From assembly GCA_028534125.1 (NCBI GenBank), contig CM052816.1, positions 56,918,001 through 56,982,000 of the forward strand: a stretch of 64,000 nt of DNA. Direction: 5' to 3'. Both the position numbers and the translations under genes were made by a program. The notes under the pieces are model-generated. The model was not told the DNA's origin and ran no database searches. It was given only the letters and a program-made list of their open reading frames with translations. Shown here piece after piece: positions 4,791-61,439 of this stretch (its first letter is position 1; each line of letters starts with the position of its first letter). Origin of the DNA: Lama glama (lineage: Eukaryota).

Positions 4791-5598
4791 GGACATACCA
4801 TCAGAGCGCTTTTTTTTTTTTGATCATGTCATTCTTTTATAAGAAAGACTGAACTTCATCATTATATTTCTATTTGTTTATAAGTACTTGAAAGTTCTAT
4901 TCTCCATCTACTAAATAAATTTAGGAAAAAACCTACGGACTTAATAACTAGTAGGCTAAATCTAGGGAACAAAATGGGTTTTGAGGTAGAATTGCATAGT
5001 ACTGCATCTCATATTATTCAATCTTCATTCACATTATACTATGTTATGTTAGCAAATCACCAAAAATGAAAGAAACTCAAAGGCAGAAATGTCAGCTAGA
5101 GAGTAGAAAATAGCTTTAATGAGATTTTGGACTTTGTATAATACATAGCTATGTAATGCCAAGGGCTATCATATAACCATATTTTTATTGTGGTCCTCCC
5201 AACTCTACATGGAGATAAGCAAAGCAGTATTCTGGATATTGGAGAAATTGAGTGACATGCCCAGAATCATCACTGCTAGGAAGTGAGAGAGTCAGGATTC
5301 AAACTCTGGTCTCCCGATTCTGAATCCAGTGTTCTCATACCTAGCATTATGTTGTGTCTGGTAGTTTACACTTTAAATAACATGCGATTTGAACTCAGCC
5401 ATGTACACTGAGGCACATTGTAATACATTCAGACTACAAATTGCAGCAGCACATAACAGGACTTCAGTGAACACAAGTCAACACAAAGCGAGCCTTACTG
5501 AGTAATATAGTCAACTTTTTAGAATGCCAGTATATTCATAGTAATATTAATATGCGGTTGTTAAATTAGATCACAAAAATTGCTTTTCTTTTAAATAG

Positions 5599-5696
5599 AA
5601 AATGTTATCAATCACACGGACGAAGAAGGATTTACTCCTCTGATGTGGGCTGCAGCACACGGGCAAATAGCTGTGGTAGAGTTTCTACTTCAGAAT
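5599..5696 (+). CDS. ANKRA2: ANKRA2 coding exon 4 (ENVINHTDEEGFTPLMWAAAHGQIAVVEFLLQN)
   Basis: Ankyrin GxTPLxxA motif; aatag| acceptor and |gtaagg donor. Confidence 0.95.
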
Positions 5697-6201
5697 GTAA
5701 GGAAAATGCCTCAGACAATGTCTATGTACATTAACTTAAGTCCAGTTAAGTATTTAGTAAAGTTGCTGTGTCTCCAGCCAGTTAGATTTAATGGGAGAGG
5801 ATCGAAAACATTTTAAGTGCTCTTCCTGTTCCTGTGGAATGTGGATCCAGTTGAGCAGGCAGTCTGGTCATACATGAAGCAGTGAGAGGGAACTGAATGC
5901 CCAGCCCCCTCTAAGTGCCATGGGGACAGGAGTACTGTCAGCCCTGTAGGAGAAGCTTCCTGGAGGAGATGCCATTTGACTCCAGAGTGACAGGAGTTAG
6001 GACTGAGGTAGAGGGAGGAAGGAAGGCATTCGGACAAACCTTGATGACAAAAGCATCCATGAGTAGAAGTTTGTGTTATTTCTTTATGAACCCCAGAACG
6101 CTACCTGACCTAGGTGTTGAACTGTAATTATTATTGACAGAAGTAACAGTATTCTTGTTTTCATAAACTGAAAAGTCTTTTATCTCCGTTTCCCATTCCA
6201 G

Positions 6202-6327
6202 GGTGCTGATCCCCAGCTGTTAGGGAAAGGTCGAGAAAGTGCACTGTCATTGGCCTGCAGTAAAGGCTACACAGATATTGTCAAAATGCTGCTTGATTGT
6301 GGAGTTGATGTAAATGAATATGATTGG
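6202..6327 (+). CDS. ANKRA2: ANKRA2 coding exon 5 ([42 protein letters not shown])
   Basis: ttccag| acceptor, |gtgagt donor, 126 nt. Confidence 0.95.
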
Positions 6328-6635
6328 GTGAGTCTGTAATGCTGTTTTTTAAATTACTGAAACAAACGCTAGGATTTATTTGGTTTGGGAAGACCGAATA
6401 CATTTTTTTAAACACGTGGAAGAATAATTAATTACTTTAGTTAATTGAACACTTAGAAGAGAATCTTAATGTCCTAAACTCAATTATTAGTTCTGATTTA
6501 AGTATTCTAAAAAAATATTAAAATTACCCTAAACTACTTTCACATGCCCAATTCTTAGTAAAGCTTCTCACAGCTGCATTAAATTATTTGAATCTTGCTC
6601 ACCTTGAAAAGCTAAATCACCTTTTCCTTTTGCAG

Positions 6636-6702
6636 AATGGAGGGACACCTTTGCTTTACGCTGTACATGGAAATCATGTGAAATGTGTAAAAATGCTCCT
6701 AG
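6636..6702 (+). CDS. ANKRA2: ANKRA2 coding exon 6 (NGGTPLLYAVHGNHVKCVKMLL)
   Basis: ttgcag| acceptor, AG|gtaagc donor; ankyrin repeat. Confidence 0.95.
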
Positions 6703-7210
6703 GTAAGCAGATAAAAGTGGAAATATTTAGAAAATGCCACATGAAGACTTTTTTTCCCCCACAAACTGGCCTCGGGAGCATCAGGAAGTATTATTAAATA
6801 CATGATTCCCCCTGGAGCGCCTGCTGCCCGAAGGCTGCCCGTGTAAGCAGCATCTGCATCACACAGCACGCTTGCAGCTGGAACATCTGTCCTTGTGGCC
6901 TTCCTTTTAGGGGTCACATGTGAATCCACAGCCGTTGTCTCTTCCGCAGTATCTTTATGCCTAAGCTTTGTCTGTAGTTTTTAGAAGTTCCAGTTACTCT
7001 AGAGGATACCTGTTTGTTTTGAAGTGTCTTCCCTCCAACCCACCAAAGTGAATTCTGTGCACTCCGTGTGTCCTGTACTTTGTCAGACCAGCCTGAAAAG
7101 ATCTTCCAAATTTGCTGAAAATCTGTCTCAGTTATTGCACATGAGCCAGTCAGAGACATATTCTCATTTTCATTTTATTTATGTAGATTTTTCTATTTTT
7201 TTTGTTATAG

Positions 7211-11300: not shown

Positions 11301-13160
11301 ATTCCACGGAATTGAAATTACAATTGGATATGTAATTATTGCACTGAGAATAGACCACCCCAAACTCACTGTCTGCTGTGTTCTCCTCTCTATGAAATGG
11401 AGACCATTATATGATATGTTTCATGTGTTTTATTTTTTATTCGTAAGTTCAGTTAAATTGTTCTCCATTCAGACAAACTTCCTCGTGTGTGTTTATAAAC
11501 CTGGGAAGTATCTTAAATTTGTAGATGTGTCTGTTATTTTCCCTCTTCATATCCACTGAGGACAGTCAGGCTGATGTACATACCCCAGAATCAATTTATG
11601 GGAAGCGTCATAAATATCTTCTATGTGCTTAGCTGATTTTCTGTTCACCATCCTCTCTCCAAAAGATTAAACGTCTGAAACAAGAAATTTCCTCTAACAG
11701 TTATTCAATCCTTCGACACACATTTACGGAGCCCACACTCTGTGCTGATTTGGACCGGACCCTGGGGATGCAGTGGAGACCCACATAGACCTGGTGCCCT
11801 GCCCTGCCCCACCCTGCCCTGCAGATCTTACGCAGTGAATCTGCATACCCAGTGAGTGTGGCTTTGCTCAGAATTATCTCCCCTCATCCCATACATCCTG
11901 AAGACAAGTTAAAAATGTCATGTACTAACTGAGGTGTGTTCACGGCTCAGCAATGTCTGCTTTGGGTTTCTCAAATGCCACTTGTTTTGCTGTATCAAAA
12001 CATCCGCACTCCTATTGACACAACTAGAAACCTCCATGTCCTCGGGGCAACCAGAGGGCTGAGAAACTCAGAGCGGTGGAAGGAAGCTCCACTCCAACGG
12101 CACCTAGTTCTCTGTTGCCACAATAGAATCAACAGGAGAGGTTAAGAAAACACTGGGGACTTGCCCCTTGTCCTCCCACACCGGAAGTTCCGATTTACTA
12201 GCCGAGAATGCCATATAGAGATGTAAAATAGCTTTCTAGATGATTTGAATGTACAGTCAAGGTGGAGAACCACCGCTCTGGGGCGATTAGCTCCAGGCTG
12301 GTGGAACCAGTGTACTCCACACCACATCCTAATATCTGTCTCTCTCATTGCCACCTTGTCTACAAAAGAACCTTACGAAAGAACCTAGTTCATTCTTTCT
12401 CTCTGGCCTGTCGGTACTTGCTCTGATTCTTTTCCAAAGATAAACAAACATGTTCCCTTTTAAACCTAGGTGACAAAGAGTTTTGAAACTCAAATCTTAC
12501 CTTTTGTAATTCACCTGTCACTCCACGAGTTGTTAGCTGTGACTCAGCATTCTTCATTCATCTGTGTTTCTGAAAGGCAGAGCCCACATCTGATGTCACG
12601 TGATTGCTCACTTACTTTGCTTACCTTCTGGATTAAAGAGCTGCCCTGAACATTCAGGACAGCGATTCATACCAACAAACACCAAAGAGCTTATCGTGTT
12701 ATTCCCTCATTCTAGGATTTCCTTGTGGAGCGCAGGCACTGACTGAAGCACTGGACTCCAGAACTCATGTCTGCTCACAGGATTCACCCACGAGGCCAGG
12801 TAACCCCTCCTCCATGATGCATGTCTGTTATGAAAATGTCTCTCTCCTCTTACTTGGCCGTCCTGGTGTTTGCCCCGCTGCCAAGGAGACTGTCCACGAG
12901 ATTAAGTCAACTGCCTCAGCCTGTTTCAGTGAGCCCCTTCCTCAGAGGCCCCTCAGTGGCTTCAGGAACCGGTTGTCAGTCTTTATGGAAGAGCCCATCC
13001 CCCTAGCTGAGCCAGAGTTTGGCCTGACTGCCCTCGCCAGAGAATAAACCACTCTTTCTGTGCCATTTAAAGATAATGTTGCCTTGTCCATGTTGATGAG
13101 ATGTTGGAGGGCCCTCCCCAAGACAGCACTGTGTACTTGGTCAGCTTTCGCATAGCCTCC

Positions 13161-13660
13161 NNNNNNNNNNNNNNNNNNNNNNNNNNNNNNNNNNNNNNNN
13201 NNNNNNNNNNNNNNNNNNNNNNNNNNNNNNNNNNNNNNNNNNNNNNNNNNNNNNNNNNNNNNNNNNNNNNNNNNNNNNNNNNNNNNNNNNNNNNNNNNNN
13301 NNNNNNNNNNNNNNNNNNNNNNNNNNNNNNNNNNNNNNNNNNNNNNNNNNNNNNNNNNNNNNNNNNNNNNNNNNNNNNNNNNNNNNNNNNNNNNNNNNNN
13401 NNNNNNNNNNNNNNNNNNNNNNNNNNNNNNNNNNNNNNNNNNNNNNNNNNNNNNNNNNNNNNNNNNNNNNNNNNNNNNNNNNNNNNNNNNNNNNNNNNNN
13501 NNNNNNNNNNNNNNNNNNNNNNNNNNNNNNNNNNNNNNNNNNNNNNNNNNNNNNNNNNNNNNNNNNNNNNNNNNNNNNNNNNNNNNNNNNNNNNNNNNNN
13601 NNNNNNNNNNNNNNNNNNNNNNNNNNNNNNNNNNNNNNNNNNNNNNNNNNNNNNNNNNNN
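13161..13660. other. Assembly gap (500 N)
   Basis: Run of N. Confidence 1.
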
Positions 13661-16600
13661 TGGCTTTCAAAGCCTGATGCTTTTCCTAAAAAGAGGCAGC
13701 TTTTAATCTCTCAAAATCTTGAATGCTGGCTGGTGGTCATGGATAACTGTATTTGCATTGAGATTTGTAACTCTAGAAAATATCACCTACCACCCTTCTT
13801 TATTAAATACAAACAGTCTTAGAACTTTCCCTTCCCCTTCTCTCCCTTTGTAGGAAAGGTAAGTGAGTAGATGACTGGTTGATTCATCTTAAACAAGGTG
13901 TTCCAGGAAGTTTATTCTGACAATCAATTTGTCATTGTCTTTCAGCTTTATGCTAACTTTTCCAGAGCAGGCATATTTTATTTTTTGTGTAGTTAACTTC
14001 CCCGGTGTGCTCCTAAAACAATATCTCAAATCACTTCCCTTTAAAGAAGCCAAAAAGCCCAGGTGCTTCCTTTCCCAGCTTCTCCTTTACCCAACCTCCC
14101 CACGCCCAGCCTCCCTTGCAGCTAGAATGCAAGTATGTGATAGAGGTTTAATCACTCAGATGCTCCCACCCCAGATTTTTCAGTCGGTGCCTCCTGACAC
14201 AAAGCAGTAAAAACAGTGGCGCTCATAGCAGTGACGGCAGTGACCACAGCAATACTTAGTTGCTGGGAGCAGCAGATATTGTACCAAATGTCACAGCCAT
14301 GTCCTCACTAACAAGATGTTGGCTGTGGCCCTGTAGCTGCCTGGTCTTCTTGCCCTAGCCTTCTTCCAGCCTGCTTCTCAAGACTTTCTGGTATTTTTGT
14401 CAACAGACAGTTTTCCAGTCCATTCCTTTTCTGTTTAACCAGAGTTGGTTTCATGCTAAGAATTTTGACAGTTATAAGGTAACAAGGAGAATCTCCCTCT
14501 CCCAGACTCTGTCCCACTTTGCCATCTGAGCACTGGGAGTCCACCAGTGAAAACAGCTCCTTTAGTCCTGGTCGTGTTTGCTCTCCCTCCTCTCCCCTCC
14601 TCCCATCTCTCTAGGGCTCAAGTATGATTGCAGATTCCGGGGACCAGCCCAGCAGCCAGCATCAGAGATGCTCACCTCACTCTCTCTCCATCCCTCACTG
14701 CCTCAACCTCCTCCACAAACCTTCCAGGAGAAGAGCCTTCACCCCGTACAACACAGCTCCTATAAATAGATTCCTGCAGCTGCTGTTCCACTAACTCATC
14801 CATCCTGCCCAGACAAGCCCGACTGCCTGGTTAGGATACAGCTTGTGCCTGGCTCAGAACCCCTGCATATTGAGAAACTGGCTACTTTGGGAAATAAATT
14901 GTCCTTTTTCTAAAAATATTCTTCTAGGTTATTTCTAGCAGGACTAAGTTATTCCTGTTGAGCCTGACACCTGCTTCCTCAAAGCCCGGACCCTGCCAAT
15001 TCCCTCCCTCTCTCCCTCCCTCTCTTCCACCAGCATTCACTAAGCACCCCAAGAATTAGACAAGAGGACAGAGCCTCAGCTCAGCCCTCCCTCAGAGAAG
15101 CCTCACTGCACTCCAGTACATTCTGGAACCCAAAGTAAGTCCTTGTACATCAATATAGTCAAGGCTGTTCCTTCTCTTGTAGGTGACAGAAGTCTCTCCT
15201 CTTTCCATGGCAAAGGAAATACCTTCAGCTCTGAATCATAAAAAGGTGATATTTCTACTTTTTTTCAAAAATAAATTAAATGGCTCTGCAAAACAGGAAT
15301 GCATTCAGTCGTGTCCCAGGAGCCAACCAATAATGCCTTCTCTGTGTTTAAGCCAATGGCTTCAGGGCATCTAAAAAGTCAGTAGGCATTTCCCAGACTC
15401 TGGCTCCTGGAAAACTTTACATGGAGGGTAGTTGCAGGTAAATTCTGAGTAACCAAGCTGGTAGGGGCAAAATCACCTGCCTATGTCACACTTCGTCCCT
15501 CAGGGCTCCCAGAAACCAAAGATTATGCACAAGAACCACTCAAGTACATCCACTGCCAAGCACTTCCAGTCACTGACTTTCCATAAATGTCAGTATGCTT
15601 ATGTTGGCATATGCATATATGATACATATAATATACACACATATATACAACAGTTTCATTATAAAGATATTTTAATAAAGTTAACTACCTACATAAACAC
15701 ACATGGTAGCCAATTAAAATATACAGTTTAACTTTAAATTTTTTGCCCTGAAAGTTATATGTAGGCTGAACTATTTACAAAATAATAAAAGCCAGTGATA
15801 ATTTCCATTCCTGCTGAAGATGATCACGACCTAAGATCTTTCACAGACCCTGGGACCTTGAGGGTCAGCTTTTCTACATCTCCAGGTACCAGCATCATAC
15901 ACACAAGTTTTCTGTCAGAGATTTAGCCAGGACCTGGAAAGGATTATTCCAAATCGAGGCCAGCAAGAGGAAAGGTGAGAGCAATCCCCAAGTGACAGAC
16001 CCACGGAAGAATTCAGGAAAGCTTTTGTCTTCACCTGCATTGACTTGGCCTGGGTCTGCTCCCCACATAGTCCCCAAGCTCATTTTGGAGACTGCTGGAG
16101 GCTCTGAGCTTTGGCTGCCTAAACAGGGGGGTTCACGCTCCAGCTCTGGAGGCCCCCACATACCTGCCAGGTAAACATGCGCCTGGGAGAAAGTCGAGGC
16201 TGCTCTTGGGTGGGCTGCCCAGCAAGCTGTGCACCAAACCCACGTCCACTCACTGAGCGGGACCTGAACGTCATTGCTGGGGCCAAATGGTGGTCCTGAA
16301 AGCTAACAACTTGTCATCATTTTTCAGCCTTAAAATAGGCCAAATTCTTTACAACACAGAGACTTAGATCCAACCCTTTGATTTCATTCAAAGTCTTAAA
16401 AGTAAAAAAATTTTTAGTTGTAAAGATCTGTTTCCCACCACAGATACTTGCCAAAACACTCCCCAAGTACTGTTTTAATGATTCTCATCATCCATTGGTG
16501 AAAAGCTTTGAATAGTTACCAAAATGCTTCCTCCTACTGTCTCATTTGATTCCCCCAGGAGTCCCTTCGAGCTGGAAGGACTATGTCCATTTAACAATCA

Positions 16601-18849: not shown

Positions 18850-19050
18850 TTTTAGAATCAAATGGACCCAGATTCAAATCCTGACTTTCAACAACGTTTT
18901 TTCCTAAGCCTCCGTTTCCTCACCTATAAAGTTAACATCATAATACCACCTTTGAGGGTTTTTCTAGGGATTTGAAATAATATTTGGATTTGACACAAAT
19001 GAAGTGATTTGAAATTACTAGCACATAGTAAACAATAAATGAGAGCTATA
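18850..19050 (+). mobile_element. MIR SINE fragment
   Basis: cagattcaaatcctgac...gcctccgtttcctcacctataaa...gagggtt core. Confidence 0.6.
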
Positions 19051-19225
19051 GTTACTACTATTTTGTTATTATTGCCTCTGTTAAGCAGTAAAAGCCCCCA
19101 GTTCAATCCCCCGTGTTTACTACCTGAGGATGAATCTTCCTCTCAGTTCTTTAGCCTGAAGGAGAGAAATGCACATTCCTTCCAGCTTTTTCTTAACTCA
19201 TCTCAACCATGGTGGTTCTCAGCCC

Positions 19226-23700: not shown

Positions 23701-26328
23701 CCACAGCTCCAGCCTGGCCCTGATCCACTGCAGGCCTCAGGCCCCCAGGCCTCGGGTTCATTTTTCAGTCTGCACAATTCCTTCCACCCCCTACCTCCCA
23801 CCACCTTGGTTTTTATTTTTATGGCTTAGTTAAGATGAAGTTTAGGGCCCAGAGACCCCATAACATTTCCTCAGGTCTGTTGATCCACAGTGGAATGATT
23901 TCCAGCTACATGTTAGCCACTGAGGTAGTAAAGACATGCTTTGTGGCTCTAATCCCATTTTAATGTCACAGGGCTGTTTGAATGTCTGATTCTGTTTTAA
24001 TGATCAGTGTTTACACTGGCCTCTTGAACACACCCTTGAGGCTGTGGCACTAAGTAAGCAATGACTTCTTACAAGCAGCTTTCTCGTTTGCCACTCAGCC
24101 TCATTAACCTTTAGAGAAGTGATCGCCACGTGAGCCACACAGGACTCACAAGAGGATCCAGTGGGGTCAGGGAAGAAAATATTAGAACTTTTATTTTTAT
24201 ATAGTATGCTTCATTTCACTCTTCTTAGATTTCAACCTCAGACAATGTTTAACAATATACAAAATATACTGGTGGACAAGTACAGGCATAGAGTTTATAA
24301 ATATTTGTATATTGTGGGGGAATGCTAATTTTATTTGATTTATTTGTTTTGTTACTGAAGGGATATACAATGAAAAAAGCTTGCAGATGTCTATTCTAGA
24401 AGAGTATTTATCATTCTGGCTGTTTCAGAATCACTAAGGGACCTTTTTTAAAAAAGCATATTAAGCCCTAGCCCCATCCTAGACTCAGTAAACCACCATC
24501 TTCAGGAGTGAAGCATGCGGTATGCGAATTTTTTAAAAGCACCCCCTGGTGATTCTGACACAAACCCCTCAGCTAAAAATCGCATCGTTCTCCAGGCAAT
24601 CAGCTCACTGAGGGCAGACTGCATCCATCTCTCTTGTTCACCACTGTGTCTGTGGAGCCCAGCACACTGCCTGACACGGGTGTTCCGTGCATATTTGCTG
24701 AAGGAATGAATGATGAACCAATGAACCACAATCCAGAGACGGCCACTGCTAGCTCCCCCAGCCTTTGTTTTCATACTTAGTGCTTCTATATGATTGTTTG
24801 ACACGACCGTGAACCCATCACATATATGCTGAGTAGTTTATTTGATCGCTTTAGTAAACAGGTTTCACTATTGAAAGTGATACATGTTTTAGCATAGTTT
24901 AGCATTTAGCATCTCCTGTTACAAATAAGACTATGTAAAAAAATCTTTTTACATAAAGCTTTCTTCTATATATCCAATTGTATGCCTAGGATAGAGTGCC
25001 GGGGTGGGATTTCCAAAGAGTGGGGAACATTTTACAGGCTGCAGCTGCTGTGGGAAGCACAAATTAACACTGACCGCAGAGCAGGAGATGCTGGTTTCAG
25101 GGTGTTTGTGACCCAGCAGAGGGAGGAGCTCTGTGGTTCTGCAAAAAGACTTGGAGGCTCTGACTGCATTCTAGTCCCTGTTTCTACCACTTACTGGCTG
25201 TGACACTTAGGTTCTTTAAAGCTAAGTTTCTTCACCAATTATGTGACTATTCATAGCCACATTGGGCTGTTGACTCTGAAGCACTCTTAGGTGTTAGAGA
25301 TAAAAGAATTAATTTTTATACTTGTCAAAGGGACAAAAGAAAGCCTTGGAGTCTAGGAGTGGTTCCCATGGAAAAGTGCCATCCTGTCTCTCTTCTGTGA
25401 CAATGTACTGTTTACCCAAAAGAGGGTTTGACTGCAGACTCCAGGCACTGAAGAAGGGTCAGAGATATTAGGATCTCCAGCCAATGGGCCACCTCAGAAA
25501 TATCAAGGATGAGTCTTGTTGTTTGCGAAAAGCAGTGACGCTGGACTCTGAGGAAAGATCAAGAGCAGTCAGAGCACTGTTTTCCTCCTCATGCTGTGCC
25601 AGTAAAACCAGTCAGGCAAGTTCCCGTGGTGCCAAGACGCTCTAAAGGGAAGCAGCTCCCCTCTCCTGCTCTTCAAGGACTGCTCATTCCAGAATCCACC
25701 AAGCAATGTCCTTCGGAAAGTCTGGTTGGAACTCAAGGCCAAGGTCTGCATTTCATCTTTGGCACAGGGCTGTAGTTCCCAAATGTTCGTATGTATAAGA
25801 GTGACCAGGGGTGCTCAAAAAATATGCAGCTCCTCTGCCCCACCCCCTAGAGATTCGAATGCTGGAGGTCTGGGGTGGGCTCAGGAACCTGCATTTCCTT
25901 CCTGAATTCTGATGCAGGTAGCCTGAAAGCCAGGTCTGGGGAAACAGCGGCACAGGAGACCCAGCCCTGGGAAGGGAACCAGAGAGCTGAGTTTGAGGTG
26001 AGATCGTTCCACTCACCTCAGCATAAGCCTCAGGAGTCATTTCACCTCACTGGCCCTGCTGTTTCATTTTAAAACTTCATTTTCACAGCAGAGGGAGCAA
26101 TACCTGTTTGTCAAAAGGCTTGCTGCTGAGAGATTGAATTAGACATTGTAGACGGGAAAAGCACCACTACCACTCAGAGCATACACGTAAGGTCCTAAAT
26201 GTTGTCCCCTGCCTTTCGCACTGAGATCAACACGGACAACACTGGCTAGTTTACATCGTATCCCCAAGACAAAGCTCTCACTGAGACGGAGACTTGTTCT
26301 CCTGTGTGTTTGGGCTTTGTTGTTACAG

Positions 26329-26451
26329 AGAGGTGCCGGTCTCCCACCAAGCAGTGTCTCTGGGTTTCCTGCATGGCGTTCCTTGTGCTCGGGGTTCTGG
26401 CTGCTGTGATCAGTCTCGGGATCACCTTTGGGATACCTGTAAAACCTGCAA
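26329..26451 (+). CDS. LDLRAD1-like gene, transmembrane exon (RCRSPTKQCLWVSCMAFLVLGVLAAVISLGITFGIPVKPA)
   Basis: ttacag| acceptor, GCAA|gtacgt donor, 123 nt, phase 1-1; Cys/basic cluster followed by a hydrophobic helix ending G-I-P. Confidence 0.8.
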
Positions 26452-27764
26452 GTACGTGTCTCCCCTAGGTGATGGACCTGCCAGTCATTCACTCAACCAG
26501 CAGGAGTATATTTGTCCCCCATGTATTTCCAAAATGGGTGAGTCTCTTCCTGATAGGGTGAGATGGGGAGTCTACTGATAATGGGTGGCTGGCACATGGT
26601 CTGTGCCAACAACCATTGCTCTGGACACTAACACATCTCATCTTGATTTCATGCTTTTCAACCACCTTGTGAGGTGGTTATTGTTATCACCATTAAGAAC
26701 AGAGACTTGGGGAGGTTAGGTGACTTGCACAAGATCATATGGATGGTAAATCAACAAGCCAGTGCTCTAATCCAGGTCTGCCCAGCTCTGAAGCTTACAC
26801 AGGACGTGGTTTGTATCTTTAAGGAGTTTCTGCCATATTTGGAGAGACTAGGGAACCAATGATGAACAATGCAAGAGAGCGTATCATTCAGTATTAAATG
26901 AGGTTGGGTGGGGTGATAAATACTGTTAGCAATTCAAGGGAGATCAGCCACAATCGTTGTGCCAAGCACCTCATGGATTAAGGGATACACACAGCGGTGT
27001 TACCTGCTTCTTAATTATCAACCTAGTCCAACTGCAAAACTTTCAGGATGCAAAGCACATCTTCCTCAAGCTCTCACCAACTCTAACTTAGGTATCTAAA
27101 ATGTTTCCTGTTTACTACCCCACACACTAAGCCAGAATTTTCTGGAAAGACATTATTTTAGGTGTAAATATGGTTGACATGTGTGTTACCAGTCTGCTAT
27201 TTACCTCTTAGCTTCCATCAAAATTTTATAGTACTTAAAATTTAAAAAATATGTATCACAGCATTATTTTGATAAACTCCCACTCATTTTTGAGTGAGTA
27301 GATTAATTGCATTTAAACAATGATCTCAGTTTAACCCACAGAGCCCCCTTGAGGTTGGCCTAGCATTTTATCTGTGTTCTCAATTCCAGTTAAGAAAAAT
27401 CACAGAGGGGAAATTCACAAACACGCAGAACCAATCTGTGGAGCAGCTCAAGCCAGATCCCAGGCTTCTTGGCCCCTCCTAGTCACCTTCAACTCCTTCT
27501 CAGGCAGGAGTGTGTATACACTCGTTTACCCAGATGCCAGTGGTATTGCAAGCAATGCAAGCTAAGCTGGCCTAGAGAGTTTGGGAGCATGGGGGAGAAA
27601 AAGAAGTAAAAGGGAAAGAAATCATGGGGAAAAGAACAACGGAAAGAAGCAGACGGGGAAGAAGGAAGCAGAGTATTACAGACAAGTATTACGCTTTTCA
27701 AGATTGACATTCATGGTCATGATGCATGTGTCAACATCCAGTACCTGTCTTATAAATCTTCCAG

Positions 27765-27908
27765 ATTTGCTGTATCAACCATGTAAAACAGCTTCACGGC
27801 AGCTGGGCTTCTTGTGTGAGGACCTCACCACTTGCTTGCCACCCTCCCTGCTTTGTAATGGCAGGCTGGACTGCAGTCACGGGGAAGATGAGTCTGCTAC
27901 CTATTGTG
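27765..27908 (+). CDS. LDLRAD1-like gene, LDLa module 1 (NLLYQPCKTASRQLGFLCEDLTTCLPPSLLCNGRLDCSHGEDESATYC)
   Basis: ttccag| acceptor, G|gtgagg donor, 144 nt, phase 1-1; six Cys and a C-x-G-x-x-D-C-x-x-G-x-D-E LDLa signature. Confidence 0.88.
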
Positions 27909-28035
27909 GTGAGGTGGACAAACAATCCAAATTAAAAAGCAGTCACCATCATCTAATAACTAAAATTCAGAACTAGAATTAAAATTATCAATGCACGAAT
28001 GTTTCTGTTAGAAATAATGCTGTTGTCAAATACAG

Positions 28036-28158
28036 GCCAAGTGCCCAGCAGTCTCCCACAAAACTTGATATTCAAGTGTCCCAACCAGAGGACTTGGTCA
28101 TACATGGACAAGGTGTGTGACAACAGAAATGACTGTGGGGATTGTTCCGATGAATCAG
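28036..28158 (+). CDS. LDLRAD1-like gene, LDLa module 2 (GQVPSSLPQNLIFKCPNQRTWSYMDKVCDNRNDCGDCSDES)
   Basis: atacag| acceptor, CAG|gtaaag donor, 123 nt, phase 1-1; CD-x-x-NDCGDCSDE motif. Confidence 0.88.
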
Positions 28159-29152
28159 GTAAAGATGAAGCTATGTAATATAATTAATGTTTTAATGGGT
28201 TCTTGAAGTTGCTACCCTTACATTTCAGTCATACAAATTAACTCAAACTCAAAAAACTTCCTAAGGATATTTATATTCACAATAAAGCAATTCTATCACT
28301 ACCAGTAGTTTGCATTTTTAAAGTAGGTGAGTTCTCTGGCTAAGAAGCAAATTAAGCCAGTTTTGCAAAGATAAATAAAGGAAATCATCTTGATGGGCAA
28401 CTCTTGTCTATTACCAAATTTCTTTTTGATTTCTTTGAAAATTTTGGTAAAGATCAAAGAAGTTTGTTGAATGACTTTCAAAGATAGTTTTGTTTATTTA
28501 ACCTTTGGCATTTCCTTGTCCCTCCTCCCCCACTCTCTTCTCTGCCTCCCACAGTGTTCTCTATGGTGGTTTGACACTGTGCAGCACCCCTGATCACTTA
28601 ACAATCTGGTGTGGCTGGATTACTCAAAAACTATGGTGGTAGATACACTTCCAATATGGCATGGTCCAAGGAAGCATGTAAAAGACTTACTGGAATTATA
28701 TTACACTATTTAGGTCATATCCTGCCTTTTGTCTGGTCATCATGGAAGGCAGAAACAGAAATGCTTCCTAGGAGTTGCATGTTATCTAACAATGTGTTGA
28801 CAACAAAAGACTGAAAATACAAACAGATCTTTCTTACTAGCTGCCAATTAACAAATACTGAGTCTCTTCTCTGCTAATGGAACATACAAAATCCTATGGA
28901 CTCTTGCTGTGTATGCAGTATGTCAGTATGCTTATTCTCAAGCTGATGGAGAGAGGTGGTACTCTTCCTGGCTTTTTAAAGTACACATTCTTTCACCCAA
29001 ATATGTAGAATCTTAATAAATGTCTGCAACATATCCCTTGGACAGTTTCCACTAATATTTTAAAAATCCAAACTTTTTTTCCAATAGGATCTTTTCCAGT
29101 CCACTTTGACATTTTAACAGTTGTGGTTTTAAAAATAAATAAAACTGTCTAG

Positions 29153-29289
29153 TTTTACAGTGCCCAAAGTGTTCAGGCTGGAGGTGTGATACTGTTTTCT
29201 TTGCTGACTGTGCCTGCATTCCCAGAACTCGCTGCAAAGATGGCATTCAAGACTGTGCTGACTGGAGTGATGAAAATATATGTGAATAG
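29153..29289 (+). CDS. LDLRAD1-like gene, last exon, LDLa module 3 (VLQCPKCSGWRCDTVFFADCACIPRTRCKDGIQDCADWSDENICE*)
   Basis: ctag| acceptor in phase 1; C-x-DG-x-x-DC-x-DWSDE motif; TAG at 29287-29289; AATAAA at 29573. Confidence 0.85.
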
Positions 29290-31576
29290 AAGATTTTTCT
29301 ATTGTTTGTCTTGTTACCAGTTCCCTTAAGATTTCTCTCCCCACAAAGTGACATACGTATCTTAAGAGTATGTGTAGGAGTAGGGAAGCTACTAAAGCAT
29401 GAATCCAGTGTTATGTAACAGAGAAAAAAATGGTTAGTAGAAATCAGACCCAACTTTAAGTGGCCTTCAGCGAATTTTAAACCTTGTTTCCAAGTTTCAG
29501 AATATAGCTTTCTGCCTTGTACACCACAGGGTTATTATGGGGATGACACAAATGTACTGTTTTGATTATTTCAATAAAGGGTTTTAATCTTAACAATTTT
29601 CCATTCAAAATCGCTGTCTACATCTTCATTAGTGTAGCTCTGGTTCAGATCCAGCTGAAAGCTAGTTTGGCTTAGGGCTAAAAAGCACTGCACAAAAGCC
29701 AGCAAATAGTGACAAAAGCCAAAAGATCAACCAGATCAGAATTATCTGCCCATCCAGCCTTCCAGTGTAGGTACTGAGGTCAAAAGAGCAGATCTGGGTT
29801 TCAATCTCACCCTACCACTTGAGGGGCTGTGTGACCTGACACAAGCAGATTTAATGGTTTCCTTATCTGTATAATGTGTATTTTGGGGGGAGACTGTTAT
29901 GACAATCAATGAAATGATATAAAGAGTTGTACAGTGCTTAATATACAATAGCAACAGGAATTGTGGGCAATTAAAAGAAAAATTCTAAGGATATGGTAGA
30001 TTGTATTATTGTTAAAAATACCTGCTATCCTGCTCTGGGAGAGGATTATACTTCCCTCAATCCTCAGGGCCATCAGATTTCACTATGTACATGACTTGTT
30101 CTGGCTTTTGACATTTGATTGCTTAACGATGTGCATCACTCCCCAGTGTAAGTCTGAAGAGCCAGCTCATTGCCATCTCTCTTCCCTGTCCTGAGACTGG
30201 AAATGTTCCAATGAGAGGTTAGAGTCACAGGCAAACCACAAATGTCAAACCTGACAAACCAACCTTTGTAGCAATTAAATTTTTTAATCATTTGTAACTG
30301 TAGCTTAACCTTGCCTATCTTGATGCTGAAAATGTTACAAGAAAAATCTTTCTTACTATATCCACTGACACAGATCAGTTTAAATAATGGACCAGAGAAG
30401 TAACATTTTTAGAGGCTGCTGGGGAGTAAAAATCTCCAAGTACAGGCAAAACAGGATTAACCTTAGCCAGCATCTGCTATGAGAAGCCAGTGTCCCTTTT
30501 CTGTACAGACCTAAGGCAAACAACCAGAAGGATATTCAGATAGTGGCATCTTCACATGCTCATGTCAGCTTTTCACTGTCATTCCAATCTCTTGGAATGA
30601 GTTGAGATAATCTCTAATTGTGCTACTCCAAGCATCACTGCTGGAACTCCATCAGCATTACCTGGGAGCATATCAGAAATGCAAATTCTCAGGCCTCACT
30701 CCAAGCCTTTCCAATCCTCTGCCCTACAGGTTAGCCATTCCATTTGCTTTGGCCACTTACATACAAGAAGTGATACTTGTAACAGCTTTAAGAGTCAGCA
30801 CATGACCCACCAGCTTCTCTTGTCCCAGATAGAGGCTGCTCCATAAGCCTGGGACCTGGACTATGTAGCGGAGCCTAACCTGACCCACCATAGTCTGGAA
30901 ACCCAAATTTATGTTTTGTAATTTTGTAAACCATTGAGACCTTAGTCCTAGTTACTGTAGCAGTTTACTTTAACAGGACCGATACAAATCCTTTGAAGAA
31001 ATACAATGTTAAGATGTGCAGATACTTTTTGCACAGCATCTCAGACAAGGTGACATCCTAATACAAACACTACATCCCCCCCCCCCAGGTATCTTATAGA
31101 ATATCCTACATAGGAGGGAGTTAAGAGATTAACTACTTCAACTTTTCTCAAGCAACCTCGGTTACATCTGCAAAGTGGAGCCACTAGTCCCTACTTCATA
31201 AATTGAGGACTAAATGAGAGAAAATTAAGTCTGATAATATATATAAGGCACTCAGTATATGTATACAATACAGACAATATGAAGAGAAAAAAACCCTTGC
31301 TCACCCACAAAGGAATATTCTATTCTCATTTTATAATTACACCCATTACATAAACCATGAATGAAGCCCTGAGGACTGAAGAAAAAGGTTTTCAAACGTA
31401 AGAACTTTATACCACCTGTTACATGATACTGTCATTTAAAATCTTTAATCATATTTCATCCAAGATTATTCAGCCACATTACATGCCATGATTAGCTTTC
31501 TATAAACAATTTTGCTTTCTGTGTACAAATCGGTATTAATGAAATAAAAAATAAAACTGTATACTAGGCAAAGAAC

Positions 31577-33938: not shown

Positions 33939-34196
<258 letters not shown>

Positions 34197-37827: not shown

Positions 37828-38001
<174 letters not shown>

Positions 38002-38099
38002 CTAGAAAAACAGGAAACCCTCAGCGAGGAAAGGGCTAGTTCACTCTAGCATTCCACGCGTGTTATTTCCCAAGACATCAGCAGAATAAATGACCTACA

Positions 38100-39420
38100 C
38101 AGGCCGAGGCCTGGATCCCAAACCCACCCCGCCAAGCTCCCAAATTTCAGTTTCGAGGGAGCCCAAATAGCACTCGCCTCCCTCCCCCTCCCCCCAAACT
38201 CCCCCCTCTTTGCAGGCCCAGCAAAAGGGCTCTAACCCACCCCCGGCCAGCCCCCCACCCCCCACCCCCGGCCCTGGCCCGGCCTCGGCCTAGCCAGGGC
38301 CTGCCCGGCCCGGCCACTCTCCGCAAGCCTCGCGGTACCTGAGGCTCCTGTCCTCGGGTTCCGCCGCGAGGTGGAGGAAGAGACGGCGTCGCCTCGCCCC
38401 CAGGGCAGCCGCCCCTGGCCCGACCTCGACCCCGAGAGTCAGCCTGAGTGGGTGCGCCTGTCCGTCGCATCGCCTTCCTTTTCTGAGCCCTGTCCCTCCC
38501 TGTCTCGCTCCTTCCGGGCACTTCCCGCCCCCGTTCCCGTCCTCCTCCCACGCAGGCGTCCAGAGCCTTTTTGTACCTTGTTGGAGAGGAAATGGGGCCG
38601 CGCGGGGGACTAGGGTTGGCGCTCAGGGGGGTCTCGGGTAGACCAGCTGAGATAAGGCGCACACACGCGGGGACGCAAGATGGCAGCTAGAGGGAGGTCG
38701 GAAGTGACGCAATGCCACTTCCTCCTAAAGTCAGGAAACGGACTTCGCCGCGAGCTCAGCGTCTGACTGCGCACGCGCGCGCTCTGGCCAGGCGGTCGTG
38801 ACCGTCGCGTGTGGCTGTCCTCCAGTTGCCCAGAACAGGTCGGGTCGAGACCGCACGTCAGACTGGGCTGGAAGCACCGCGAATGGTCCTGGGAAAGGCC
38901 ATGGAGTGGTCAGAGAGCACGGTTCTTTGCGCAGTTAGGGCTGAGTAAGTCGGCCGTGTCTCCATCGGGCCCCAATCGCCAAGTTCTTTACCCCTGGAAG
39001 AAAGGGCCTGTTCACCTTTGCGGAAGCGATTGGGGCGCCTAGATTGTGCTCACCTGTTTAGCCTGCTCTCCGCTGGTTGGGTGGTGTAGATTGGAGCGAT
39101 TATCGGAATGTTTTAGAATTTCCCCTCCCGCCCGAGTGAGCCCTTACCAAGACGTTTTGTGAAAATTTTGCTTTAGTTGGTTTGGTGGTTGCAGGACCAC
39201 GCTTCAGAATTTATGAGGAGCGTGTTCACAGTGCAGACCTGAGCCCCACCTCTCGGCGATTAAGTCTGGCTGAGGATGTGACCGGGTAATCTGCATTTCA
39301 GCAGGCCTAGCCGGCGGCCTTACACCCGTGAACGTGATTACCTCACTTCTTTCGTCTGTGACAGAAAGCTCGATCCCTTGATACCTTTTGGCGTGGGCTT
39401 GACGATTAGCCGTTCACAGT
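38100..39420 (-). promoter_or_regulatory. BTF3 CpG-island promoter
   Basis: CpG-dense; YY1 CAAGATGGC (38676-38684), ETS CGGAAGTG (38699-38706), TGACGCAA, NRF1-like TGCGCACGCGCGC (38768-38780). Confidence 0.85.
38339..38470 (-). CDS. BTF3: BTF3 exon 1 coding part, 44-aa BTF3a extension ([21 protein letters not shown]...GQEPQ)
   Basis: ATG at 38470, CAG|gtaccg donor; matches the BTF3a N-terminus. Confidence 0.9.
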
Positions 39421-41269
39421 TGAACGAACTTTACCTTTCTTAACTGAGTAATTCAGTCAAAAGAGAATTTGTGCCTGTTTGTTTGGGGAGGCTAAACTGG
39501 TATGAGTTAAAATTTTCTAAACGCTAGGACAAGCTTTAAGACAGTCTTAAAACAACTGATACTAAAAATGGCGATTTAAGTCACAATGCTATCTGATTAG
39601 CCTTTTGTGGTCTTAGCTATAAAAAGCCTTTGTATATTCAAAAATGAGTCCGAAATCTAACCTAGAGAAAATACCGTTTTATATAAAGCAAGCAACCTTG
39701 TGTAGGTGCAGATTTATCTCCGATTAAGATGAATGTTTTTGTTTTTGAATACTTAGCTAGTGTAAATTTGTTAAAATTGTGACGACTCTAGGAAAATAAG
39801 TGATGAGGACGCTGTATAACTTTTTAGGATACTGTAACAGTTGATAGTTTCTCAAGAAACAATGTTGCCCTTATTATTAAATATGAGTCAAATTTATTAC
39901 AGAAAAGGAATTTTGTACTGTTAGGCTATGTGGGTCACTGTCCGAATGTTAAAGGTTAAAATGACTGTGCCAACACTATACAGTGCTATAAAAATATTAG
40001 AAAATATATAGAAAGACAGCTCTTTTTGAAAGTGTATCTTTGTTCAGACAATTCCACCCCTACACCTTCCTCTCTGTTACACTGGGTCATTTGAAACTTC
40101 CTAGTCATGCAAGGTTTTCTGAGTATTTACGTAAATACAGGCTTCTACGTAAGTAATCTGCCATCTGATTTACCTCACCTGTTTTCAGGAAATGTTCCAC
40201 GTTTTTATTTTCCTTTGGTTCCCACTTTTCTCTTGTTGTTTTGTAAAAGTTTTGCAAAACTTGCACTATGTTGAAATCACAAAAAATTCCTTAACAGTAA
40301 GAAAAAGTTTTGATTTTGACTCCTGATTATTTTGTGTGTGGTCAGGAAATTCTGATTCTGCTAGTATTTATAATACCAATCTTTCAAAAGAAATAACTGA
40401 AGGGATTTCCCCCAACCCACCCCCACCCCCGCCCAAATATCTGCTAAGTTGCCACCTTAGCTCAGTGATGGCAAGAGAGTAACTCACGTATTACCATTTC
40501 CTATGTGCTCCCATTGTCTATGGCAAATATGGATAATTGGCTTCTACACTTTACTGATGAGCTTGAACAGAGCTAAGAATCATTTACGTAGCACTCAGTG
40601 TGGCCTCTGTCAATAGAGTAGGCAAAAAGGGGAAACCTGCAGTCCTTGGCTTATGGTTTATGGTCTAATCAACATCCATGGATTGTTTTCACCCCTCAGT
40701 TGGACTTCCCATGCATTGCTTCTTACTTCAGCAAGAACTAAAGTATTTATTTTATATTTTGTTTATTTCTTAAGAGCCCCATTCTCACCCACAAGAGGTA
40801 CTGGAAATCACTGAGGATGAGTGTTTCCATTCTTTTAGTTGCTTCATATTCTGGCCCTTGACTGCTAACCACAAGGGACTTTTTTTTTTTTTTTTAGTTT
40901 CTAATACTTAAACTCTTCTTCTAATACCCTCACCTTTATCAAGTTAACATCTATATCTCATCTACCTCTTAGTCTAAGTGTCTCAGGAAAGCTTTCTCTG
41001 ACACCCTCAACCCCATTTAGTTACATCCGTCATATGTATTTTTAGTTGTGGTATTTTACTAAATGCAGAATGAGAGATTGATAACTTTGTTGAGTTAATG
41101 AAGAATTGAACTAGGAGTCTTAATGACAATTATCCACTGGGTTAATATTGAGTGTTGGCTCTTTGACTGTTGAATTCTCACAGCAATCTTAAGAGATAGA
41201 TACTTTCTATATTAACTGATGAGGGAAATGAGGCTTAGAGAGTTAAAGATGTGAAAATCAGCACAACCA

Positions 41270-56228: not shown

Positions 56229-56728
56229 NNNNNNNNNNNNNNNNNNNNNNNNNNNNNNNNNNNNNNNNNNNNNNNNNNNNNNNNNNNNNNNNNNNNNNNN
56301 NNNNNNNNNNNNNNNNNNNNNNNNNNNNNNNNNNNNNNNNNNNNNNNNNNNNNNNNNNNNNNNNNNNNNNNNNNNNNNNNNNNNNNNNNNNNNNNNNNNN
56401 NNNNNNNNNNNNNNNNNNNNNNNNNNNNNNNNNNNNNNNNNNNNNNNNNNNNNNNNNNNNNNNNNNNNNNNNNNNNNNNNNNNNNNNNNNNNNNNNNNNN
56501 NNNNNNNNNNNNNNNNNNNNNNNNNNNNNNNNNNNNNNNNNNNNNNNNNNNNNNNNNNNNNNNNNNNNNNNNNNNNNNNNNNNNNNNNNNNNNNNNNNNN
56601 NNNNNNNNNNNNNNNNNNNNNNNNNNNNNNNNNNNNNNNNNNNNNNNNNNNNNNNNNNNNNNNNNNNNNNNNNNNNNNNNNNNNNNNNNNNNNNNNNNNN
56701 NNNNNNNNNNNNNNNNNNNNNNNNNNNN
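56229..56728. other. Assembly gap (500 N)
   Basis: Run of N. Confidence 1.
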
Positions 56729-58540: not shown

Positions 58541-58829
58541 AAAAATAAACAGAAAACAACGAATGGAGCCCCTTTTGACCTCTAGGCGCTTGAGTTTACA
58601 AAGAGAAGGGAAGATGCTGCAGCCACAAGAAGGATAGCACAGGATGAAAGAATGGAGCCACGGGCATTTCTCGCTTTCGTCTAGAGGTACTCAGAAAGCA
58701 CTTCTCTTTGGGCCTAATAATGATCTATTTACCTTACTTCTCCATGAGACGTGAGTCACACCAGAAAGTTGCGTTTTATTCTTACTCCCTCCAGAAACTA
58801 GAGTGCCAGGCACAAAGTAGCATCTCAAT

Positions 58830-59700
58830 ACAGACGGAGTGGAACGACTCTTGGAGGAGGGACGTGGCCCCAAGTGTCCGCCGAGTTTAAAGACGCGTTG
58901 ACGTTCACGTTCATGGGTAAACGCCTGGGGTGCGCTAGGGGCCGGAGAGAGTAGTCCAGGTTCCCGCCCCGGGAGCTGATGCCCCCAGGTCTGTGCCAGC
59001 CTTCGCCCACCGAAGGAAGCCCCTGGAAGTTGCGGAGCTCGCGGTCCGGGGCCCGAGGGCAAAGGGCTGAGGCGGTGCCTCCCGAGGGTCCGGCTGCCTT
59101 TTCTGCTCCTCCAGCGCGTCATCCCAATACCCCTAGGAGGACTCCTAGAGCGTCCAAACCGCCACAGGAAAAATCCTAAACCTGCAGTCCAGGGAAACGC
59201 CTCCGCATGCGCCCAGTCGCCCTTGAGAAGGCGAGGTGGGTTCGCGAGAAAGAAAAGGACTCGCGGCCCGAAGTCCAGGGGTAAGGAAGCCCGGTAGCTC
59301 ACCGGCCACACTCGCAAAACGACCGCAGTTTCCTGAGCTCCGGCTCGGGGCCAGCCCTGGGCCAACTCCGCGCGGCGCCGCCACCAGGAGGCAGGCCTCC
59401 CCCAAGCGGGCACCAGCCGGCCAGCGAGAGCCACGCGGCTTTCCGCGTCGGCGCGAGCTGGGCGCGCGGGAAGAGGGTCACCTCGTCGTCCCCGCCTGCC
59501 TCACCGAAGTTTCTTGTCCCTGTACTAACTTGAGAGATGGGGGTGGAGATTTCCCAGCCATGGCCGAGAGCTGGGAGCTTATTAGGGCGGGAGGCCCAAG
59601 GATGGCAGACGAGGGAGGCAAAAGAGGGACCCGCGCGGGAAATGAAATTCTTGGGTTTCCATGCTCGGGGAATTTCACGGAGCACGGAGCTAAAAGTGGC
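58830..59700. promoter_or_regulatory. CpG island upstream of FOXD1
   Basis: Dense CpG/GC block separated from the FOXD1 island by AT-rich DNA. Confidence 0.7.
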
Positions 59701-61439
59701 ATACAAACGTGTAGCTTAACTAAAGCAAACAAAGCAAGTGGTATATCCAAATGTGGAGCTTTAGTAAAGCTCACACAAATCTCTGTTAACATTCTCTGTT
59801 CCTGCAGCGCTTCTCCTGGGTTGATCTTCCGCTCTGACCTTCGTAAATCCTAACACTTTCCTAGGAGCGGCCAGAAGATAATTTGCCACGTTTTTAAAGG
59901 GTTTCCAGGGAAAAGCTCTTAACCCTTTGTGGGGGACCTTCGGGCAAAATTACAAACGAAATACAAAGTCAATCTCAGAGCCCTTCTTGGTCAGACAAGT
60001 TCAAGGCAGTGTTAACAGAACCGAATGACTGCTGTAACTGATCACCTAAAGTAACTAATGGTCTGCGAACAAATTCTTCTACGTTTCAACTTTAAATACT
60101 TTGCCACACACCAATCCTCAGTGCAGCGAAAATCTCGTGGTGTTTATTTAAATATCGACTGAGTACTTATAAAGCTTAAACTTTCAAACGTAAAAGTGAA
60201 CTGCTTGGTAAGGACTCCTGGCTACATCAACAAAGTAATGTAATGCCTGATTAATAGTGCTGATTAACGTTGGCTCCGGTTAATGCTGGGCCCATTACAA
60301 TAATTAAATGATGCAGTCATATATCAAATAAGAGTCAATGAAAAATAATTTATTTAGGGTTCTGAGGCATTCCTATGGAATTTTCAAAGACCTAGAACGG
60401 ACTGTATGGGTCATTTGTAACTGTAATTGGTTGATAGCTGTCCTCAGCAACAAAAACTCGATTTAAAAAGAAGTCTTAGATGGGGGAAACAGTTTATTTT
60501 TGAGGCTCTGTAATTGATAAGGGGAGTAATGAAATGTTTGAAAATGTGAAAAGTGCTTGGTCCTTAAAATGATATACAGAAGGGCAGCTGATGATTGTTT
60601 CCACATAAAGCCATTGATTTTTGATTCTCAGTTCTTGTCAAGCGGTCATTTTAGTCAGAAAGCTAAAATTTTGAGGCAAGGTCCCCACTTTGAAGTAAAA
60701 GAGTTTTAGGAAATGCAAAAGTCCAAAAAGTATGGCTACGTGAGTATGAATTCCACAAGCTATTAGGATTTTTCCACTAACCAAAGTAAAAATGAATTGG
60801 TGACAAAGATAGGTGTACTTAAAATGCCATTGTATTTGAATTACTACCACTACCTTGTCATCTGAAAAAGGAAAATTGAGTTGAACAGAACTTGAATCTT
60901 ACTTTTTAAAATTATTTCGTTTCTTTTCACCAGTACCTACTGGAAATATTTAGTGGATTTAAAACAATTTTTAAAAGCTGATGTGAAAGTTTCTATCATT
61001 GTAGTTTTATTATTAAGCCTGGCCATGTAAAGATACGTGTGTATGTTTAGTAATATAAGTATTTTGAGATTACTGTGGAGTGTTGATTAGAACATTCCCC
61101 TTACTGAAAACTATAGAATCTCTCATGCCATTATGAAAGAACTTTTTTGAGTTGTTCCTAGATGCATTTTTTTGGTGTGTATTTGGGTTTTCACTAAAAA
61201 TTTCTATTTCTTCTCTGCGTTCAATGATTACTTTCTTTATTCCCATGAAATTCATCAGATCCTCTCATTAGAGTGCCTTAGTTTAGCTGTCAAGTTTCTA
61301 GGGCTTTCAACTGCAGATAAGTGACTAAAACACCAGCTTAACAGCATTTTTATTAACAGATGGTGGAAAACAGAAGTCTTTGGAGAAGAACCAAAGGGGA
61401 CAGGTTAAAAGGTCAATAAACAATTATTATTGTGCTTAA

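Follow-up and report, generated by a model that had tools for sequence, protein, structure and literature searches.

A six-exon LDLRAD1-type gene between ANKRA2 and BTF3

The window analysed here is a stretch of 64,000 nucleotides (nt) from the llama, Lama glama (assembly GCA_028534125.1, contig CM052816.1, positions 56,918,001 to 56,982,000 of the forward strand; C1:56918001-56982000 in the 2.35 Gb assembly as searched below). It carries a gene of the LDLRAD1 family on the plus strand, extending from 12767 to 29289 with six coding exons, and predicted to encode a small membrane protein with three low-density lipoprotein receptor class A (LDLa)-type modules. The last four exons had been proposed in a first-pass annotation, and a re-reading of the sequence reproduced them in every respect. 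AG precedes each of the four (TTACAG/, TTCCAG/, ATACAG/ and GTCTAG/, the slash marking the exon edge), GT follows the first three (/GTACGT, /GTGAGG and /GTAAAG), the joins are in phase 1, and the polyadenylation signal is found where it had been placed, 284 nt 3' of the stop codon. Spliced together, the four exons total 527 nt and contain a single open frame of 174 codons followed by TAG, both other frames being stop-rich.

When six orthologue proteins (bat, rodent and marsupial among them) were compared with the window by tblastn, all four exons were matched, with expectation values (E) down to 6e-42, and two additional coding exons appeared upstream. The four-exon model was correct in the exons that it contained, but it had no start codon and missed these two; its 'exon 1' is exon 3 of the gene. 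Exon 2 was matched with 76% identity across 21 residues (E 2.9e-4). Exon 1 is short and was placed by tblastn through the 13 N-terminal residues of its bat, rodent and marsupial orthologues, at E of 0.06-0.2 and 67-69% identity (69% and 0.18 for the bat N-terminus). An in-frame TGA is present at 12740-12742, nine codons 5' of the ATG. Coordinates of all features are collected in Table 1.

Pfam profiles identify the family. The LDLRAD1_C profile (PF25241, 'LDLRAD1-like, C-terminal domain') matched exon 6 with 69.8 bits and E 1.5e-19 at a cut-off of 29.2, spanning profile positions 2-40 of 40, and Ldl_recept_a (PF00057) matched exon 4 with 30.1 bits and E 5.8e-7 at a cut-off of 24.1. Together with the alignment, these matches uphold the earlier description of the product as LDLRAD1-like, with a transmembrane segment and three LDLa-type modules. 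The first module has the six-Cys spacing and an acidic cluster, D-C-x-x-G-E-D-E. The second carries the motif N-D-C-G-D-C-S-D-E, invariant across 18 orthologues, while the third has eight Cys and ends in D-C-x-D-W-S-D-E. There are 18 Cys C-terminal to the transmembrane segment, and all ectodomain Cys of the family are retained.

Orthology, age and neighbourhood

In a protein search with the last exon, 19 of 19 candidates were matched, their full-length forms having about 207 residues. Those with names are mostly filed under 'low-density lipoprotein receptor class A domain-containing protein 1-like', 'LDLRAD1-like C-terminal domain-containing protein' and 'Predicted gene 21976', the last being a label in Ensembl-derived records of mouse-group species. 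The gene had been presented in the first-pass annotation as hidden, a description that has to be dropped: public pipelines have it as a prediction, labelled 'LDLRAD1-like' or 'Predicted gene 21976', for numerous species, and a Pfam family covers its last domain. Measured against the window model, identity is 84.5% for the bat LDLRAD1-like protein, 71% for that of the Tasmanian devil, 67-69% for those of rodents, 59% for coelacanth and 54% for axolotl, compared with just 46-48% for LDLRAD1 proteins, alpaca included. The sole return from the ESM Atlas was the LDLRAD1 cluster (score 0.95, 116 members), and a search for related loci with the family alignment found 12; these are all LDLa proteins at a distance (29-61% along short stretches), with no orthologue among them. 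Taken as a whole, the locus between ANKRA2 and BTF3 is probably to be explained as the llama orthologue of 'LDLRAD1-like', a vertebrate gene that arose long ago as a duplicate of LDLRAD1.

LDLRAD1 itself, which we take to lie at 1p32 in human, is present separately in the llama genome. With the bat protein as query, the assembly returned the exons in the window and a weaker locus on contig C9, with 31-51% identity. The last exon of the C9 locus matched 75 of 78 candidates in a protein search, nearly all of the named ones being LDLRAD1, with alpaca as the best match (98%) and human at 80%. The alpaca LDLRAD1 protein maps to G000:C9:25341799-25350569 in six exons of identical order. Because the true LDLRAD1 lies on another contig, and because the two genes fall into separate clades (below), the gene in the window is a paralogue, diverged as had been claimed, and not an LDLRAD1 that has moved.

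A quick tree of 36 rows separated the LDLRAD1-like and LDLRAD1 groups, each with a value of 100 in the Shimodaira-Hasegawa-like approximate likelihood ratio test (SH-aLRT). For wider sampling, a profile of 18 clade members was run against 1.84 billion representatives, yielding 1404 matches with E <= 0.001, of which 36 had E <= 1e-30; ten short full-length matches were named, from lamprey, bichir (two kinds of protein), elephant shark, parrot, platypus, frog and others. The careful tree, of 45 rows and with a lamprey root, uses the window model with the acceptor at 26331, and excludes the otter sequence (Lutra, P0055) for its long branch. In it the two labelled groups are split with support of 100/99. 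The LDLRAD1-like clade (95/84) comprises coelacanth, salamanders, frogs, elephant shark, one bichir copy, marsupials, placentals and the window sequence, which lies within the placental part of this clade in both trees. The LDLRAD1 clade (100/99) comprises mammals, platypus, parrot and gecko, together with a copy from a frog and the second one from bichir. In this lamprey-rooted tree, both clades contain a copy from bichirs and a copy from frogs. The membership of the two clades argues for a duplication that predates the jawed-vertebrate radiation and would have followed the separation from lampreys, a dating that hangs on one lamprey as the root and on branches that are long for shark, platypus and bichir.

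The coding exons are strongly conserved. Compared with 18 orthologues, the window shows 0 differences at 51/51 family-invariant columns (those invariant in at least 15 of the 18), and 0 differences at the 82/82 columns that are invariant in 8 mammals; in a leave-one-out count, those 8 mammals have 0-11 differences each. The terminal branch of the window sequence (0.13) is comparable to those of beaver and blind mole-rat. Since all 82 mammal-invariant residues are kept, the coding exons appear to have been under purifying selection until recently. By a rough estimate of our own, zero changes would allow up to about 0.017 neutral substitutions per site at 95%, or a few million years, taking the 82 codons to contain about 177 non-synonymous sites by hand count. 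Partial models from some other placentals differ at invariant columns, namely dolphin at 5/73, raccoon dog at 7/38 and colugo at 4/48, with Cys, Trp and acidic residues lost, while some other rows of the same count differ solely where models run into introns or other frames. The dolphin, raccoon-dog and colugo records (P0007, P0015 and P0002) are apparently decayed copies that pipelines have annotated as proteins.

A Pfam scan of the 126 stop-to-stop frames of the window identified the flanking genes. Ankyrin repeats occur in three plus-strand frames, one of which matches the solved structure of ANKRA2 (1.4e-26), and a NAC domain occurs in one minus-strand frame that matches BTF3 (1.6e-38), so both flanks are as the first-pass annotation had named them. 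Further along is a 517-codon frame with a forkhead domain (3.3e-38), in DNA of 72.7% G+C, which is probably a single-exon gene of the FOXD1 type; from human synteny it is presumably FOXD1. The order in the window is ANKRA2 (+), the LDLRAD1-like gene (+), BTF3 (-) and the forkhead gene (+). Paralogous neighbours occur around LDLRAD1 on C9. The two best non-self matches of the forkhead frame are at 18.04 Mb (64%) and 30.26 Mb (52%) of that contig, and the NAC domain is matched at 26.85 Mb (72%), 1.5 Mb from LDLRAD1 at 25.34 Mb. LDLRAD1 lies between the two forkhead matches, mirroring the order forkhead-BTF3-LDLRAD1-like of the window. The two loci look like a pair of duplicated blocks, in which BTF3-like and FOXD-like neighbours would have been duplicated together with the LDLRAD1/LDLRAD1-like pair, and descent of the blocks from the early vertebrate whole-genome duplications would fit this arrangement.

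Some other features of the window may be mentioned. G+C content peaks at 52.7% upstream of the minus-strand BTF3 exons, probably at the CpG-island promoter of that gene. Two matches to the Rfam tRNA model, of 48.5 and 31.3 bits, could be tRNA genes or the tRNA-derived heads of short interspersed nuclear elements. On both strands of a region of 51% G+C there are extended open frames that overlap, of 269 and 208 codons, without a Pfam match. N fills exactly 500 positions at each of two places, the first inside intron 1 of the LDLRAD1-like gene.

Table 1. Features of the 64,000-nt llama window, in window coordinates
Feature	Position	Strand	Length (nt)	Description and basis
Ankyrin-repeat frames (ANKRA2)	5595..6794	+		three frames; the ANKRA2 structure match is to frame 6172-6336
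Coding exon 1	12767..12799	+		ATG + 10 codons; phase-0 donor CAG/GTAACC
Run of N	13161..13660		500	inside intron 1
Coding exon 2	15183..15245	+	63	21 cytoplasmic-tail codons; acceptor TAG/, donor AAG/GTGATA
Tandem acceptor CAG/AG/	26327..26330	+		sequence reading
Coding exon 3	26329..26451	+	123	basic stretch, then transmembrane segment; tblastn and helix of orthologue model
Coding exon 4	27765..27908	+	144	LDLa module 1; Pfam Ldl_recept_a and alignment
Coding exon 5	28036..28158	+	123	atypical LDLa module 2; 88% identity to bat orthologue (tblastn)
Coding exon 6	29153..29289	+	137	LDLRAD1_C module, eight Cys; stop TAG 29287-29289
Second open frame over last exon	29153..29326	+		frame 0, open for 58 codons
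Polyadenylation signal AATAAA	29573..29578	+		3' of stop codon
NAC-domain frame (BTF3)	33939..34196	-		Pfam
G+C peak	38001..40000			probably BTF3 promoter
tRNA-model match, 31.3 bits	42190..42262	+		Rfam
tRNA-model match, 48.5 bits	47370..47442	+		Rfam
Run of N	56229..56728		500	
Overlapping open frames	58694..59850	both		no Pfam match
Forkhead frame	62215..63765	+		517 codons, stop to stop; Pfam

The predicted protein

The product would have about 206-207 residues, with a basic N-terminal tail of 40 residues, one transmembrane helix and three disulphide-rich LDLa-type modules. Five of the 9 residues preceding the hydrophobic stretch are Lys or Arg. An AlphaFold2 model of the bat orthologue, built from a 33-row alignment, has a confident helix at 39-66 (predicted local distance difference test score, pLDDT, 85-94); only this transmembrane helix and part of module 1 are modelled confidently. 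Because basic residues precede the helix, and because the modules require disulphides and Ca2+ and so an oxidising compartment, a type II orientation is predicted, with the N-terminus cytoplasmic and the modules extracellular. A profile of 33 family members matched LDLa repeats in the PDB, those of LRP2 (3.8e-57), VLDLR (2.2e-9) and LDLR. Pfam returned only LDLa-type domains for the gene product, with no EGF or beta-propeller domain, and inspection of the predicted tail sequence found no NPxY motif. Since the EGF/propeller part and a tail NPxY are both absent, the protein does not qualify as an endocytic LDL receptor of the classical kind.

In the LDLR family, LDLa modules are Ca2+-holding units to which ligands bind by their basic side chains. 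By analogy with them, each module of the llama protein would hold Ca2+ in its acidic cluster and offer an acidic pocket to basic ligand side chains, and the product would act as a small surface binding protein or co-receptor. The site of action would probably be a specialised epithelium, if the analogy with LDLRAD1 in ciliated airway cells holds. Of published work, one paper describes Ldlrad1 as a membrane receptor that mature ciliated airway cells carry (10.1101/735969), another includes it in a set of ciliated-cell genes (PMC12737339), and a third does no more than count it with the expressed members of the LDLR family (PMC13402676). LDLRAD1 is thus named in the literature, and no functional study of it, judged by title, is among the matches listed. 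No mention of 'Gm21976' was found in the literature searched. Neither 'LDLRAD1-like' nor 'LDLRAD1L' occurs among the matches listed, for which the total of the two names alone is not separable from that of a generic third term. The earlier description of the gene as uncharacterised stands in so far as no study of it was found, but pipeline predictions under several names exist.

An alternative C-terminus is also conceivable. The last exon is open in a second frame, and if exon 5 is joined to an internal acceptor, TTCCCAG/, near 29222, the protein would end in the tail E-L-A-A-K-M-A-F-K-T-V-L. The same tail terminates one horseshoe-bat and one pangolin model, and a sac-winged-bat model without part of exon 5 reaches it via exon 6 in the second frame (P0021, P0032 and P0023). 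The tail may mark a recurrent isoform that omits the LDLRAD1_C module, or else an artefact common to these annotations.

The exon 2/3 junction and comparison with known systems

The gene had also been described as intact, which was not borne out, the difficulty being a single base at the junction of exons 2 and 3. In the window, exon 2 reads ...AAA AAG/GTGATA and ends in phase 0. The orthologue proteins need 64 nt, the last of which is a G that begins a split codon. At this position, each of the 16 orthologues with sequence across the junction has E, G or D, that is, a residue with G-initial codons (E in bats and marsupials, G in rodents, D in amphibians), and exon-3-skipping isoform models from bat and marsupial (P0008, P0013) stay in frame. 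These G-initial residues and in-frame isoforms indicate that exon 2 of the orthologues ends in phase 1, with the extra G. The paralogue LDLRAD1 in the same genome likewise has a phase-1 donor, GAAG/GTAAAG. The AG at 26327-28 is the acceptor conserved among orthologues, and it needs one base from exon 2. Only the AG at 26329-30, which lies in a GAG context straight after the CAG, keeps the frame, giving 206 codons with the junction residue alone missing. A second AG in GAG context directly after a CAG is a weaker acceptor by the usual rules, so the ATG reaches the LDLa frame just by way of a weak alternative acceptor. Other in-frame AGs, at 26285 and 26291, have no pyrimidine tract and offer no usable alternative. 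Two other ways around the defect were considered and set aside. If exon 3 is skipped, exon 4 in frame 0 meets a stop in exon 5, by our own reading of the phases, and initiation at the internal ATG at 26373 is unlikely, as this lies within the shifted upstream frame. A separate exon of one base would be a less simple reading than a deletion, since orthologues have the missing base at the end of exon 2.

A number of observations weigh against the explanation of the llama locus favoured above. From the conserved ATG, the canonical join of 15245 to 26329 (through the AG at 26327-28) shifts the frame and meets a stop after 58 codons, so that no single uninterrupted frame runs from the conserved ATG via the conserved splice sites through all six exons. 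There is no other phase-1 donor with a usable consensus after exon 2 (cgt/GTCCCA and tgt/GTTTAA are without consensus). Ldl_recept_a scored under its cut-off of 24.1 in exon 5 (16.2 bits) and exon 6 (15.6 bits), and the AlphaFold2 model of the orthologue is poor overall, with a mean pLDDT of 54.1 and a predicted template modelling (pTM) score of 0.30. The functional analogy is weak, the function of LDLRAD1 itself being unestablished. Finally, the 19 + 33 matches of two protein searches include no member of the LDLRAD1-like clade from camelids, ruminants, pig, horse, cat, apes or human, the last being the species in which the first-pass annotation supposed no coding gene at this locus. In those groups the gene may be unannotated, called a pseudogene, or lost; as an argument from absence, this leans towards the gene not being annotated as coding there.

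The one-base difference can be read in several ways. It is possible, though on balance unlikely, that the llama copy is a recent unitary pseudogene, in which ...AAG G/GT became ...AAG/GT at the exon 2 donor, truncating the protein at 58 codons, with the downstream exons not yet decayed. The shortened exon 2, the G-initial junction residue in all 16 covering orthologues, the in-frame exon-3-skipping isoforms of bat and marsupial, the phase-1 donor of the paralogue and the stop produced by the canonical join all fit such a loss. So does the record of related species, which contains no camelid or other cetartiodactyl protein except a decayed dolphin fragment. Set against it are the 0 changes at 82/82 mammal-invariant residues, which by the rough estimate above allow a few million years at most, and the existence of an in-frame AG two bases downstream; moreover, whether a lesion is fixed, polymorphic or erroneous cannot be told from one assembly.

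An error or polymorphism of this kind is the basis of a second reading, which we regard as rather improbable: the gene would be fully intact, the missing G at 15246 would be an indel of the assembly or of a single individual, and the true join would be in phase 1 to 26329, the way other mammals have it. Every other feature is perfectly conserved, the sole defect is one base in a GG or GGG run at an exon edge, and the assembly is fragmented, with 1,072,352 contigs. The data themselves give no sign of error, however. The exon 2 region occurs once in the assembly at 100% identity in a DNA search, with no second haplotig for comparison, and there are no such indels in LDLRAD1 on C9 or in the other exons of the gene. 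A search of metagenome contigs for the exon 2 donor pattern (GG or GGG) gave 0 matches. Among 18 sequencing runs, sampled words of the last exon and 3' untranslated region were found at a share of 0.81 in five 'organism C' runs of unspecified kind and of 0.07-0.17 in eight others; such shares are not evidence of expression, and the sole RNA-labelled run, one of these eight and a 'reproductive system metagenome', had 0.12.

A third reading, to which we give only a small chance, is a compensated splice shift, in which the donor base was lost and the AG at 26329-30 came into use, giving a 206-residue protein minus the junction residue. This would agree with the single open frame of 206 codons, with the clean one-residue gap in the alignment at the junction, and with the perfect downstream conservation, but textbook acceptor rules make that downstream AG the poorer site. 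That the locus is instead a translocated LDLRAD1 orthologue, or a set of chance open frames, is hardly conceivable: its domain content does equal that of LDLRAD1, but a separate six-exon LDLRAD1 on C9 and the 100/99 split of the clades rule out the former, and Pfam scores and tblastn E-values (to 6e-42) far past chance exclude the latter.

A more far-reaching reading, which we hold to be less likely than not, is that an ancient sister of LDLRAD1, from the time of the early vertebrate genome duplications, has decayed in some placentals, and is here either at the onset of its death or rescued by a two-base acceptor shift that removes one codon. The dolphin, raccoon-dog and colugo fragments are damaged, and the record has no ape, ruminant or cat protein. 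If the rescue applies, the locus would be a natural case in which a tandem acceptor makes up for a splice-donor frameshift. Provided that the gene works, mammals possess another surface protein of the LDLRAD1 type, one that evolves slowly and on which no publication was found, encoded by a gene apparently older than the jawed-vertebrate radiation and kept in sharks, bichirs, coelacanth, amphibians, marsupials and some placentals. The patchy placental record makes it a candidate for repeated gene loss, a pattern in which a tissue or a ligand might be implicated. Annotators would do well to check the ANKRA2-BTF3 interval for a six-exon gene, in which the exon 2/3 junction decides between coding gene and pseudogene. 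No function follows from sequence alone.

Among known systems, the closest are the predicted LDLRAD1-like proteins of bats, rodents, marsupials, amphibians and coelacanth (from NCBI, Ensembl and UniProt pipelines). Like the window product, they have about 207 residues in the order tail, transmembrane segment, LDLa module, atypical LDLa module and LDLRAD1_C module; the window product has 54-85% identity to them, keeps their 51 family-invariant residues and falls in the same clade in both trees. It differs in that exon 2 is one base short, so that the junction E, G or D is not encodable via the usual splice sites. The gene is one that is predicted in many genomes, covered by Pfam and unstudied; it is not a new kind of gene. 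LDLRAD1 (C9, 25.34 Mb) is similar in its six-exon order, its domain set including LDLRAD1_C, its type II layout, and its neighbours, a NAC-domain gene and FOXD-type forkhead genes paralogous to those of the window. Its donor after exon 2 is in phase 1, as in the LDLRAD1-like orthologues. It differs in its ectodomain (46-48% identity), in forming a separate clade, and in having longer placental branches than the clade of the window gene. LDLR, VLDLR and the LRPs are more distant. They are type I proteins with an EGF/YWTD propeller and an NPxY tail, whereas the window product is predicted to be type II and to have none of these. Compared with LDLR repeats, a Cys replaces the usual Gly or Ser in module 2 (D-C-S-D-E), and module 3 has eight Cys. 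What the product has in common with the ligand-binding repeats of LDLR, VLDLR and LRP2 is the Cys framework and the acidic Ca2+-binding cluster.

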